A stretch of 63,846 nt of DNA, counting the filler, from Octopus bimaculoides (Eukaryota), in assembly GCF_001194135.2 (NCBI RefSeq). It is 9 parts of 7 records of this genome, joined end to end, with 100 filler letters (N's around TTAATTAATTAA, not from the genome) between each part and the next. Parts side by side here need not be neighbours in the genome. Positions count along the whole stretch, not along the records: positions 12,266 to 28,857 come from NC_068988.1; positions 28,958 to 45,534 come from NC_068989.1; positions 45,635 to 47,483 come from NC_068981.1; positions 47,584 to 53,970 come from NW_026358857.1; positions 54,071 to 58,267 come from NC_068991.1; positions 58,368 to 62,510 come from NW_026352204.1; 3 more parts are not named here. One strand, written 5' to 3'. The translations under genes were made by a program, and so were the position numbers. Under the pieces are notes generated by a model, which was given only the letters and a program-made list of their open reading frames with translations, did not search any database and was not told the origin of the DNA. Positions 23,611 to 61,301 of this stretch are shown here, in pieces (positions within the stretch are counted from its first letter, which is position 1; each line of letters starts with the position of its first letter).

Positions 23611-23833
23611 ATATATTTAGAAAGTTGCTTGTTATAGCTGATCAGAGAGTGACTATTGGTTTTTACACTTATAAAGCGCTTAGCTGTATGGGCGACTCAT
23701 CAGATTCAAATGGCCAGAGGCACATAACGCCTGGCCATTTCAGTCTAACAAGTTGTCACAGCTAAGCGCTTTATTAATGCAAAACCAATGGTCCTGCTCT
23801 GATCAGCCATAACAAGCAACCTTCTAAATATAT
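23611..23833. mobile_element. Foldback element (~107-bp arms, 13-nt loop) with decayed outward-facing HHR-like motifs
   Basis: atatatttagaaagttgcttgttatagctgatcag... / ...ctgatcagccataacaagcaaccttctaaatatat. The left arm (minus) keeps CTGATGAG; the right arm keeps ACCA-A-TGGT-C. Confidence 0.8.
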
Positions 23834-26800
23834 TACTGCTCTAATATGTTTTAGTGTATGCTTCTTTTTTGGATATATGAATTACTGAAGATATATATCC
23901 CTTTGAAATGTTTTAACTTTGTGGTTTTCGGTTGTTTTTGACTGTTTTCTAGCGTGTAGAAATTGCCTGTTATAGGTAATTTCTCTTATATTTTATANNN
24001 NNNNNNNNNNNNNNNNNNNNNNNNNNNNNNNNNNNNNNNNNNNNNNNNNNNNNNNNNNNNNNNNNNNNNNNNNNNNNNNNNNNNNNNNNNNNTATATATA
24101 TATATATATATATAGAGAGAGAGAGAGAGAGAGAGAGAGAGAGAGAGAGATGAAAAATATAACATGCACGCACACACACAGTCATCAGCAAAACTATGTA
24201 TGACAGATAAAAGGAGAATCCTGTAAAGCCTCCATAGCCCAGACATCTATTTAAACACCAGATCAAAGAAATTCAGAAAATGTAAGCACTTCAAAAATCA
24301 CCTGTTACGTAAGTAGAAAGCACCACCTTTACAGGGCTAAAGCCATATGAATGCATGGATAATTGTAATTGCTTCATTTTAGATCGTTTTCTTCCTTTTA
24401 CTATCTTCTATTCTATCTCTCTCATCTCTTTAGCTTATTATTTCCCCCAATATTCACCCTCTCCTCCCAACAGATTTATTGTGTAATAAATCTGTAATTC
24501 ACTTTAAACTATTTCATCCTTTTCCCATTTCACCTCCCATCCTCCCTATTTCTCTCATGCCTCAAATTATATTTTTCTTTCAAAACCCATTTCTCCTCTC
24601 AACACCACTCTTATGTTCTTCCTATCTACCCAAATGTATCAATCTTCCTTTATCGCAAATTAGGCAATTATTTTCCCCTCAAATTTTAACAATAAATTTT
24701 GTTTCATCCCAACTTCTTCAAAAGAAAAATGTTGATGGTCAAGGAGAGATAATTCCTTTCTAGTATAGAAGAGTCATAAAACTTGATGAAAGCAGACATA
24801 TAAAGGATAAATATATATATTTTTACAAAGTTTGTTCAATTCAAATGAAAGAAAAAAAATGTGAGTGTGTGTGTGTATGAGTTTAAAGACCAAATCCACT
24901 CCAGCTTGAATTGTTTACAAGGTTCAAAATTTTTGATCAATTGACCAAGTGTTGTCAGTGTTACTTGAAGCTGCTTTTAGATTTTAAACACTCTCTTAGG
25001 GAGTTTTTGCTTACTAATTATAAGGATGATCCCACTAAATCACAGATTTTTACTTGACTATATTGTATAAGTAAAACTTGATCACTACATTTTAATGTTA
25101 TCTTTTATTCCACACTATAAGATCCCCCATGCTAAGATTTCACCTTATTCTCATGTCTTCCTCGGTTTTCAGTCTCCAACAATCATTACATCACTTTTTG
25201 TTCCACAGCTGACCATACATCAATGTTTAATCTCTGTACCAGTACAGTCATTTCTCTTGCACATATGGTTTTTATGCCATCTAATCCATTCAAGCATGGA
25301 AAAATGGATATTAAAATTGATGATAGTGATGACCCAGCTACACACACACACACACACANNNNNNNNNNNNNNNNNNNNNNNNNNNNNNNNNNNNNNNNNN
25401 NNNNNNNNNNNNNNNNNNNNNNNNNNNNNNNNNNNNNNNNNNNNNNNNNNNNNNNNNNNNNNNNNNNNNNNNNNNNNNNNNNNNNNNNNNNNNNNNNNNN
25501 NNNNNNNNNNNNNNNNNNNNNNNNNNNNNNNNNNNNNNNNNNNNNNNNNNNNNNNNNNNNNNNNNNNNNNNNNNNNNNNNNNNNNNNNNNNNNNNNNNNN
25601 NNNNNNNNNNNNNNNNNNNNNNNNNNNNNNNNNNNNNNNNNNNNNNNNNNNNNNNNNNNNNNNNNNTATATATATATATAGATAGATAGATAGATAGATA
25701 TACATATACATACACACACACAAGGAATGCTGACTGCATCATTCAGGTGATATGAAGGAGAGTAAAATACCTTTTGCATTACACACATACATACACTTAA
25801 CTAGATACACATCTTATATGGGCTGATCCTATGGAGGTAGCCTAGGTTCTTGACAGGTTAGTCGCAGGAAGCCAACAACAATAGTAACAAGCTATATCAT
25901 ACTGCTGCCTTTTACAGTCTGTGTGATCTGGAGCAACTTATGAAACAGACCAAACTCAGGAGTAAGGTGCTCCCTTCATGCTTTCCTTTTGACTAATGAC
26001 ATCAAAGAATAACTGTAAGCAACTGAACCAGCTGTCTCTGACCCCATTTTACAAGAACTTGGAAAGTCTATGAACACTGTTTCACCTGTCATGCCAATCC
26101 CTATTTTCTCTCCTATAAAGCAGAAGATATATAATACAAAAGGCATACAATTACACAGGTAACATTGTTTGCTAATAAAATAGTGTAGAGTATATACTTT
26201 AAAATAGATGATTTGGATGTAGAAAACTGACAACACACTGCTCTGTTCTTAGTTGATTCATTACTTTCAATCCTTCCCTTAAAACTGCTTCAATATTGAC
26301 ATCAATAACAGTATATAGTAGTAGTAGCAGCAGCAACAGTATCTGTACATGGGGGTAAATGCATAGAACACTATGGTCTTCAAATATGGAATGCATAAGG
26401 GAAGCAACAACTGGATTATGTGTACATCTTTAGTTAAAAAAGTTATGTCAATGTAAATATAATACATGTAAATGTATTGTCAATATATGTAAATTAGTTA
26501 AACGACTTTTGTGCTAAACAGCATTTTCTAGAGAGATATAGACTGTAACCTATTTAAGTATAATGAGCCTGAAACAAATCTTCCTGGGCTTGAATTGTTA
26601 ACACCATAAAATTCAATACACACAGACAGAGTTACATAGATGCATGTTTGTATTTGGGTGTACAAAAGAGGGAGAAAATGTACTCAATACAACATAGTAG
26701 AGTTTCTTTAAATGAAGATGAGTCTTTTCTCCTCAGAATTCTAAGAAATGTAATAGAAATTGGAAAATGGAGTAGTAACAGCTTCATACAACTGAAAGTA

Positions 26801-27129
26801 CTGTATGACATGTACTGAGTGTGTTTTCTCTTACTAGTACACCTAAATGCATATACATACATACACACACACACACATATATATATACATACATACATGC
26901 ACACACACACACACATATATATATATATATATATATATATACATATACACACACACACACACACACCAATGCACACATTAATATATACATACATACATAT
27001 TAGTACATATACACACACACACACACACACATATATATATATATATATATATATATATAAATTTGTTGTTGAAAATGCACCTAAATTTGAAAAACTGGTA
27101 ATTGTTTAAATTAAATTTATTTACATATA

Positions 27130-27171
27130 TACCAAACTAGTTTCAACAATAATTTTTGTTTATCAATGATA
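27130..27171 (-). ncRNA. Minimal type I hammerhead motif, U3-A8 core variant
   Basis: TATCA-TTGATAA-ACAA AAATTA TTGT-T-GAAA-CTAGT-T-TGGTA; palindromic stem III ACTAGT. Confidence 0.6.
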
Positions 27172-27205
27172 AAAATTTAGAATTAAATTCATAATTCTAA
27201 ATTTT

Positions 27206-27247
27206 TACCATTGATAAATAAAAAATATTGTTGAAACTGGTTTGGTA
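27206..27247 (+). ncRNA. Minimal type I hammerhead motif, U3-A8 core variant (mirror copy)
   Basis: TACCA-TTGATAA-ATAA AAAATA TTGT-T-GAAA-CTGGT-T-TGGTA; perfect 5-bp stem I. Confidence 0.55.
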
Positions 27248-59586: not shown

Positions 59587-60261
59587 TATATTTATCAGCA
59601 GCCTGTCAATGGGGATCTTAGTCCACACAGCATCAAGGTATGATATAACATATATGTAATATATATATATATATATATATATATATACGACGAGCTTCTT
59701 TCAGTTTCCGTCTACAATATCCACTTACAAGGCTTTGGTCGGCTCGAGATTATATAGAAGACACTTGCCCAAGGTGTCACACAATGGGACTGAACTCGGA
59801 ACTATAAGCAGCAGAAGAAAATTATTAACAAGTCATAAACAACAATTACATTACATTTTCTTAAATTAATGAGAACCTTGTCGCTGTACATTTTTGCTTA
59901 ATTTCTCAATATCAGGTGTATAGTTCAGGTGCATAATTTAGCAGCTAAGTGGTTTAAACAGCATCTGATGGTATGTCCCAAAGTTTGATGCCACGGAATA
60001 GAAATTTTAATACGAATTATAAGCAGCGCGAAGTAAATGAAACTAAATCGAACGCACATACAGAAGGTAGGTGTGTTGTTAGTCCGTGGACATGTAGTCA
60101 TAGTCGGCGATATGCACAAGGTGACACACAGAGGGACTGAACCCGGGACAACGTAGTTGAGAAGCAAACGTCTTGATGAACGCACACGCTCGCGCGCGCG
60201 TGCGCAACTTTAACTGCTTTACTTGCAAATCTTAGTGTACTTTGCATTCTTTACGTAAGAA

Positions 60262-60515
60262 GTGATGATGATGATGATGATGATGATGGTGATGATGATG
60301 ACGGTGGTGATGATGATGATGATGATGGTGATGATGATGATGGTGGGGATGATGACGATGATGACAATCATGGCGACGATCATGATGACCTCGATGACGA
60401 TGACGATGATGACGACGACGATGATGATGATGATTATGATGAAGATGATGTCGGTGAGGCGTCGACGAGGACGACGATGATGATGGCGATGATGATGGTG
60501 ATGATGGTGTTGACA
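60262..60515. repeat. (GAT)n/(GAC)n microsatellite
   Basis: Visible; source of the poly-M/H/I ORFs. Confidence 0.95.
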
Positions 60516-60750
60516 TAGTCCAAAAAAAAATTCCTCGTTGTTTACGTATAGAAAAGCAGGAGTGAAAAATAATCTGGAGATAAAAACGGTCGCTTCATTG
60601 AGACTGCCAAAAGTTGGAAGGTGCCAGGAGATTCGAAGCGAGTTTTTGGCATTAAAAATTCTGTGTCTTGTCACTGAATTATAAATTAGCGAAATGATAA
60701 AGAAAAACCAATCTGGAAAAGTTGATAGAAAAACGAAAATATTGCCTAAA

Positions 60751-60803
60751 GAATCTCGAAGAATCTCGAAGAATCTTGAAGAATCTTGAAGAATCTTGAA
60801 GAA
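60751..60803. repeat. 10-bp tandem repeat (GAATCTYGAA)x5
   Basis: gaatctcgaa gaatctcgaa gaatcttgaa gaatcttgaa gaatcttgaa gaa. Confidence 0.95.
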
Positions 60804-61112
60804 GTCACAGCCATGCAGACGGTTCTTAATCTGGAAGAGTAATTAGAAGAAAGAAGGGAAGAAAGAAATTATATATAAAAGGTGTGGCCGAATGGTTAAG
60901 AAACTCGCTTACCGACTACTTGGTCTTGGGTTCAGTCCCACTGTGCAGCGACAAGTTAGATAGGCAAGTGTCTTCTACGATAGCTATCCACCGCCCTTGG
61001 CTGACCAATACCTTTTGTGTGTGAATTTGATAGACGGAAAACTCTATAGAAATCCAGCAATATACGGTGAGGACGGTGTTTGTGGTTTTAAAACTACGCT
61101 TATATAGAATAA

Positions 61113-61301
61113 AAAGTTTTGAATGGTACAACAATGCACTATGATAATATTTCGGAATAAAATTCCTTCTTCAGATATTCTTAGAATATCTGAAGAAGGA
61201 ATTTTATTCCGAAATATTATCAGACTATGGATGACTAAATTACAACAGGTATATAGCCCATTGTTTGTATTAAAGTGCATTGTTGTACCATTCAAAACTT
61301 T
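61113..61301. mobile_element. Foldback element: perfect 28-bp outer TIRs plus a perfect 40-bp/1-nt-loop inner palindrome (61142-61222) carrying mirror HHR motifs
   Basis: aaagttttgaatggtacaacaatgcact / agtgcattgttgtaccattcaaaacttt; the right arm has ~51 extra bp. Confidence 0.9.
61140..61177 (-). ncRNA. Minimal hammerhead motif with an extra A after A9 (mirror copy at 61187-61224, +)
   Basis: TAT-CTGAAGA-A-GGAAT TTT ATTCC-GAAA-TATTAT-C-ATA; stem I is only 3 bp. Confidence 0.45.

Follow-up and report, generated by a model that had tools for sequence, protein, structure and literature searches.

Foldbacks with outward-facing hammerhead ribozymes in Octopus bimaculoides are probably insertion products of Penelope-like elements

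Five palindromic elements (E1-E5) in a 63,846-nucleotide stretch of the Octopus bimaculoides genome (NCBI RefSeq assembly GCF_001194135.2; nine parts of seven records joined by filler; the whole stretch is called the window below) share one plan, in which each of two inverted arms carries a type I hammerhead ribozyme (HHR) motif, intact or decayed, that reads away from the centre. These foldbacks with outward HHRs are real, but they most likely represent the known anatomy of Penelope-like elements (PLEs), and on present evidence they do not constitute a viroid-like class. In all likelihood the palindromes are insertion products of several PLE families that lack an open reading frame (ORF), each built once, at insertion, from two short complementary DNAs (cDNAs) of the terminal repeat joined head-to-head. 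We consider the PLE origin of the five foldbacks very probable, and it is likely that each was formed as a one-off event and not copied as a unit; for the step in which two cDNAs run off their template, the chances appear even.

The elements are assigned to PLEs and not to miniature inverted-repeat transposable elements (MITEs) because they combine a one-sided tail, a long target duplication or TA-repeat target, and HHRs of the PLE type. The same features uphold the original prediction in so far as it has reverse transcription joining PLE termini head-to-head and does not take the elements for MITEs of DNA transposons. That each foldback was likely made at insertion follows from arm-to-arm joints of single-copy depth, tails present on one arm, 21 junctions at 23 sites in a family of the same plan from other organisms (below, the outside family), and the link of that family to a PLE ORF. 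The PLE-type ORF lies beside the outside family, and within the window another HHR-bearing end follows a PLE remnant.

Structure of the five foldbacks

All five predicted inverted-arm elements are present at the coordinates below, and their arms are 82% (E1), 92.5% (E2), 88% (E3), 87% (E4) and 96% (E5) identical. They are mutually unrelated, as had been claimed, since self-BLAST gave no matches of one to another, and the arms of each decay independently of each other. The features are as follows (strand in brackets where one applies).

23611-23833: E1 foldback; a decayed HHR in each arm, with the GAAA box altered and the stem III palindrome retained; left end within a TA repeat
23834-23872 (+): E1 one-sided tail, 39 bp, inferred from its position; an AT repeat follows
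27059-27319: E2 foldback, inserted in (TA)n
27127-27174 (-): E2 left HHR, U3-A8 core variant; predicted cut after 27135
27203-27250 (+): E2 right HHR, U3-A8 core variant; predicted cut after 27242
27320-27361 (+): E2 one-sided tail, 42 bp; (AT)n restarts beyond it
29190-29748: E3 foldback; microsatellite spacer at about 29359-29581; left end within (TA)n
29210-29272 (-): E3 left HHR, intact; predicted cut after 29216
29666-29728 (+): E3 right HHR, one core change; predicted cut after 29722
29749-29817 (+): E3 one-sided tail, about 69 bp, boundary inferred
57638-57880: E4 foldback; the left-arm HHR has lost 15 bp by a deletion between short direct repeats
57806-57854 (+): E4 right HHR, canonical type I; predicted cut after 57848
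61096-61106 (+): E5 left target-site duplication, 11 bp
61107-61305: E5 foldback, centred on 61182; each arm has the HHR core boxes and stem II, with a stem I of only 2-3 bp; left arm lacks 50 bp
61306-61351 (+): E5 one-sided tail, 46 bp; it belongs to a repeat family, other copies of which stop at 61350, ahead of TA repeats
61352-61362 (+): E5 right target-site duplication, 11 bp

Four of the elements (E1, E2, E3 and E5) extend on the right side only, by 39, 42, 69 and 46 bp, and beyond this extension lie AT repeats or, in E5, the duplication. The original prediction did not include this one-sided extension, which is diagnostic. The target was TA repeats at E1, E2 and E3, and at E5 the 11-bp duplication adjoins both element ends, for which the chance is about 5e-6, the ends having been fixed independently by contig alignments. 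Stem III is palindromic, as predicted, and the distance from predicted cut to arm end, claimed to be about 20-80 nt, is indeed short (26-84 nt).

Significance of the hammerhead motifs

The claim that each arm has an HHR is fully borne out in E2 and almost so in E3, whose right arm has one core change; it fails for the left arm of E4, which has lost 15 bp of core and stem II, while E5 has a stem I of only 2-3 bp and E1 is decayed. Core boxes and all three stems are complete in both arms of E2, the left arm of E3 and the right arm of E4. Two core variants preserve the 3-8 pair, U3-A8 in E2 and A3-U8 in both copies of the terminal repeat of the PLE remnant.

A type I HHR descriptor that accepted any Watson-Crick 3-8 pair, relaxed in this way after the elements were already known, gave six matches with a score of at least 10 in 64 kb (both arms of E2, both arms of E3, E4 right and E5 left), all reading outward, as compared with a mean of 0.4 and a maximum of 2 in 40 local dinucleotide shuffles. 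The stricter first descriptor found E4 alone among the five, together with two weak matches in an unrelated inverted pair. When the arms were shuffled, none of 100 shuffles reached the score of the element for E2, E3, E4 or E5, and HHR scores in four control inverted repeats were not beyond chance by the same test. The motif of E1 taken alone did not exceed chance either (18 of 100 arm shuffles), and thus the proposed shuffle test bears out E2-E5 and leaves E1 aside.

An independent covariance model was built from 12 HHRs outside the window, and its stems covary. Its top matches in the window were E3 left (E 3e-7), E3 right (1e-4) and E4 right (5e-4); arms of E1, E2 and E5 were absent from the 18 matches at E<=5. 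Against Rfam, E4 right scored 25.6 bits with Hammerhead_1, under the cut-off of 34, and no HHR was among the 14 matches of E3 left. The whole window likewise gave no hammerhead among the matches listed (150 of 293), these being microsatellite or hairpin matches.

The E5 family in sequencing data

The E5 region was compared, at 80% likeness, with three sets of DNA contigs and one raw RNA run. Summed contig depth, which is not a copy number, was 116,000-689,000 over E5 versus 48 on its unique left flank (run X4), and this contrast shows that E5 belongs to a large, high-copy family. The tail of E5 is part of the repeat family because depth is maximal over it and 53 contigs end at 61350, continuing into TA repeats. 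Each of the best 15 of 32 arm-to-arm joints was represented by one contig with a depth of 23-78, which is the single-copy depth. Nine among the 24 contig pieces listed start at 61179-61183, i.e., at the centre of the element, 7-11 nt upstream of C3 of the ribozyme core. Two other samples carry an unchanged left junction of E5, and the contig alignment of a second organism ends at 61075. The right flank (61351-61489) is a repeat in its own right, of lower copy number, and begins at the insertion point.

The RNA run covered 6% of one fragmented cDNA library and is therefore a weak test. E5-family reads were present on both strands at a depth of 27-153, and this run contained no pile-up of molecule ends, no listed joint and no reads on the unique flanks of E5; RNA ends at the predicted cleavage sites, for which the original prediction had proposed to look, thus did not appear. 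Among the places listed between 60900 and 61650, the RNA run, which has no matched DNA, had A>G changes at 10 and T>C changes at 13, versus 3-4 and 9-10 in the DNA runs; this excess could be due to adenosine-to-inosine editing of the repeat RNA.

The same plan in other organisms

A pattern scan of metagenomes for divergent HHR pairs, the pattern favouring short spacers, gave at least 120 loci (120 of about 230), of which 71 had no arms of at least 35 nt. The 49 loci kept include 43 that belong to one pair of related families. Nineteen of the 43 had less than 125 nt of flank, and among the 24 in which the tail could be counted, by its motif, it was found on one arm in 22, on neither in two and on both in none. 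Direct repeats of 10-20 bp flank 19 of the 30 loci with sufficient flank, three of the 19 being doubtful. The junctions, 21 at 23 sites, are overlaps at a short palindrome or carry small duplicated inserts. At L037 and L098, which are one site, two full-length arms are separated by a single G, and this base could be cap-templated. By eye, tails (23834-23872 and 29749-29817 in the window; loci L006, L017, L054, L066 and L088) tend to begin with a small hairpin closed by GCTC/GAGC or CCTC/GAGG, possibly a common signal for the inner start of reverse transcription.

The outside family is contiguous with the end of a PLE-type ORF in three contigs (L121-L123). L121 is itself a foldback: its tail-less arm, 600 bp long, holds the ORF end, and its other arm is short and tailed. 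The ORF is 48% identical over 181 amino acids to a neighbouring PLE-type ORF that has a GIY-YIG match below the cut-off. By virtue of this contiguity and of the 600-bp arm, the short foldbacks of the outside family are placed at the extreme of a PLE truncation series, and by analogy the five families of the window may be so placed as well. The three contigs, filed under a bacterial genome assembly, are dense in PLE-type ORFs and animal-like microsatellites and are likely host DNA within that assembly.

The arms of the outside family stop at a nearly fixed place. None of the 84 arms (from 42 loci, some of which probably represent one site sampled repeatedly) keeps more than 13 native nucleotides 5' of C3, and 25 of them keep 11-13, with exact matches only counted and about 30 permitted by the pattern. 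Arms reach at most to the A of a YCATT motif, which lies some 26-33 nt downstream of a TATA-like run. An arm stop at such a TATA/initiator-like site suggests two run-off cDNAs primed from two nicks.

Searches further afield gave no matches: E5 had none in metagenomes, viral contigs gave none for E3, E4 or the outside family, and a BLAST comparison of the window elements with loci L001-L120 returned no match except a TA run.

How the foldbacks may have arisen

It was shown that a PLE protein, predicted to be a dimer, nicks and extends both DNA strands at AT-rich sites in vitro. Reverse transcription of PLEs begins at two internal sites of the RNA, the interval between which is the tail, and the RNA template is uncleaved. 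The ORF-less foldbacks could be snapshots of PLE insertion, in which a dimeric protein makes two cDNAs at two staggered nicks, one starting from each of the internal sites, which would lie in the 5' part of the RNA, synthesis runs off at the transcription start about 7-12 nt upstream of the hammerhead, and end repair joins the products; we would give this scheme the same chance of being right as of being wrong. One nick would prime from the outer start site and yield the tailed arm, and the other would prime from the inner site and yield the tail-less one. Both cDNAs would traverse the uncleaved HHR, usually running off at the RNA 5' end a few bases upstream of it, and repair would join them where short palindromes offer microhomology, or by way of small templated inserts, and the target duplication would come from the stagger between the nicks. 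A scheme with two nicks and two cDNAs would thus account for the outward orientation of the HHRs, the single tail, the long duplication and the unique junctions.

Both ribozymes would be passengers in this process. Folding predictions for full-length transcripts pair 73-95% of HHR bases with the other arm. With the HHRs predicted to be locked in a hairpin, cleavage should be blocked, and a read-through transcript of a foldback would likely yield double-stranded RNA and not a self-cleaving replicon.

Several observations weigh against this account. No PLE ORF was found linked to any of the five families (E5 in metagenomes; E3 and E4 in viral contigs), and the outside family's own ORF pieces have no GIY-YIG match in Pfam. 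The search for target-site duplications and empty sites gave a divided answer: E5 has its 11-bp duplication, but no empty E5 site was found in the three DNA runs, and comparison of flanks revealed no clear tail or target duplication at E4. Diversity of junctions among the five elements rests on the E5 family, where a joint identical to that of E5 itself cannot show up, and in the outside family one junction is repeated at three of the 23 sites. The limit of the arm stop would be a transcription start as judged by its motifs. The number of nucleotides kept upstream of C3 is 7 in E5, 14 in E1, 19 in E2, 45 in E4 and 90 in E3, and given this spread a fixed run-off point is shown for the outside family only and suggested for E5. 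Finally, Arkhipova et al. 2013 (PMC3846280), in their treatment of head-to-head junctions, attribute them to self-priming on an antisense template.

Related to that proposal is an explanation with the same PLE origin, in which the inversion is produced when a single cDNA folds back and primes itself or switches template, or when this happens on an antisense template; we regard it as possible, though rather doubtful. In its favour are the short palindromes where the arms meet in E2, E5 and the outside family, the self-priming proposed for rotifer PLEs, and a small 5' inversion within the ORF remnant of the window (35600-35790). The tail-less arm, however, ends at a fixed position of the family and the duplication flanks the whole unit, as if both outer ends were initiation sites, and both strands are nicked and extended in vitro; a cDNA that folded back and copied itself as far as the inner start site would still be compatible with these facts.

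The original prediction went further and saw non-autonomous retro-foldbacks as a class of their own, whose palindromes would be transcribed and re-inserted as complete units and whose viroid-like RNA would have working ribozymes in both polarities. The foldbacks are indeed ORF-less, rod-like and abundant, E5-family reads occur in the RNA run, short non-autonomous HHR-bearing derivatives of PLEs exist as tandem retrozymes, and the data on shared junctions come from the E5 family and the outside family. We nevertheless find such a class improbable, and this part of the prediction is not sustained: junctions are copy-specific in the E5 and outside families, the tail-less outer end is fixed rather than variably truncated, arms decay independently, L121 has a 600-bp arm with a PLE ORF, the ribozymes are masked to the extent predicted above, the RNA run, weak as it is, lacks the end pile-up, the joint and the unique-flank reads, and inverted pseudo-long terminal repeats (pLTRs), one-sided tails and opposite-strand HHR pairs have already been published. 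Least credible of all, and in our opinion very improbable, is that the elements are MITEs of a TA-targeting DNA transposon with HHR-like motifs present by chance or capture. Inverted arms, TA flanks and the mariner/Tc1 transposase remnants in the window are what such an origin would leave, and yet one arm is followed on its outer side by a tail encoded by the family, the duplication measures 11 bp and is not short and fixed, and HHR scores exceed those of shuffles in four elements and not in the four control inverted repeats; for E5 the MITE origin is largely refuted.

Other features of the window

The window is AT-rich, with many microsatellites, repeats resembling short interspersed nuclear elements (SINEs), and broken long interspersed nuclear element (LINE) and mariner remnants. 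The following features are related to PLEs.

27699-27919: E6, an additional decayed foldback (27699-27867) followed by a one-sided tail of 52 bp and then (AT)n; of an HHR, the 3' half is retained; 6 of 100 shuffles reach its score
27947-28063 (-): lone E1-related arm (73%) that has both HHR core boxes in intact form, flanked by TA repeats; covariance model E 4.9
35590-36770 (+): broken PLE remnant with thumb, Cys-rich linker and GIY-YIG (E 9e-4, below the cut-off), then a terminal repeat with a minimal HHR
near 36676-36716: minimal HHR, A3-U8 variant, of the terminal repeat of the PLE remnant
7261-7487 (-): solo, non-inverted copy of that terminal repeat (86%), adjoining a TA repeat
37668-37795: E7, an additional decayed foldback with an outward HHR-like motif; 1 of 100 shuffles reaches its score

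By its Cys-rich linker the broken ORF (35590-36400) is likely of the Neptune or Nematis type, the clade being assigned from published description. At the 5' end of the remnant there is a 35-bp inversion (35600-35634 versus 35756-35790). The A3-U8 pair, a Watson-Crick swap of C3-G8, is found in both copies of the terminal repeat (36676-36716 and 7261-7487), and E7 may share it. All five resolved tails (E1, E2, E3, E5 and E6) are on the + side, as is the PLE remnant itself, and the solo terminal repeat is on the - side; these are small numbers.

Further long inverted pairs are SINE- or LINE-like (53049-53436 with 54586-54972; 55673-56582; 38847-42511), and the first two of these contain no HHR beyond chance as judged by shuffles. 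Remnants of broken mariner/Tc1 transposase and LINE reverse transcriptase lie at 423-1458, 8095-10451 and 32668-32934.

Implications and comparison with known systems

Among open-licence papers and preprints we found none on such foldbacks in cephalopods and none that states a model with two run-off cDNAs; Repbase, Dfam or supplements of papers may already list the families. Relative to these papers and preprints, the stop of all 84 outside-family arms within 13 nt upstream of the ribozyme core is a new lead, and a fixed arm stop at a promoter-like site together with a one-sided tail makes the model testable. If it is true, an inverted pLTR is a run-off cDNA whose inner boundary marks the transcription start, and genomes of this kind carry thousands of ready-made hairpins of 200-500 bp. 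For genome annotation, these MITE look-alikes belong among PLE stubs, recognisable by an outward HHR pair and a one-sided tail.

The closest parallel is with endonuclease-containing (EN+) PLEs (Penelope/Poseidon, Neptune, Nematis), which have an inverted pLTR and, at one end, a tail of 30-40 bp, as treated in Craig 2021 (PMC8557442), Arkhipova 2013 (PMC3846280) and Goubert 2022 (PMC8969392). Accounts of PLEs already include inverted 5'-truncated copies and a bias of insertion towards microsatellites, head-to-head junction palindromes with duplications of 8-10 bp and, for one rotifer PLE, a pair of TATA and initiator-like motifs in a pLTR. How PLEs form inverted repeats is named as an open question in a passage of Craig 2021 (PMC8557442). 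The window foldbacks resemble EN+ PLEs in their head-to-head inverted terminal sequence, junction palindrome, tail at one end, duplication of 8-11 bp or microsatellite target, and HHR in the repeat; they differ in being ORF-less and in having tails of up to 46-69 bp, and their PLE parentage is judged from their termini.

Minimal HHR pairs on opposite strands, some 100-700 bp apart, were reported for PLEs of Schistosoma mansoni and read there as truncated PLEs (Cervera and de la Pena 2014, PMC4209133), and the same source describes the U3-A8 core variant for PLEs. Its passage on opposite-strand pairs is one sentence long and contains no analysis of foldback, tail or junction. The window pairs share with them the opposite strands, the U3-A8 variant, the palindromic stem III and an extra base 5' of stem II, and differ in having a longer stem III, of 2-3 bp plus loop.

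Non-LTR retrozymes, as presented in portions of Cervera and de la Pena 2020 (PMC7229834) and Li et al. (bioRxiv 10.64898/2026.07.22.740005), are head-to-tail tandem repeats of one polarity that give circular RNAs. Like them, the foldbacks are ORF-less, PLE-derived and equipped with type I HHRs; unlike them, they are inverted pairs with no tandem units, and among the raw RNA reads (6% of one run) no joint indicative of circular RNA was listed.

Viroid-like ambisense RNAs fold into a rod and have an HHR motif on each strand. The foldbacks differ from these since their two ribozymes are copies of one sequence, predicted to mask each other, and there is no sign of RNA-to-RNA replication. During twin priming of LINE-1, two nicks prime two cDNAs, producing an inversion and a duplication, and the second primer anneals inside one RNA, so that the arms are not copies of each other; in the foldbacks described here, both arms copy the same terminal sequence.

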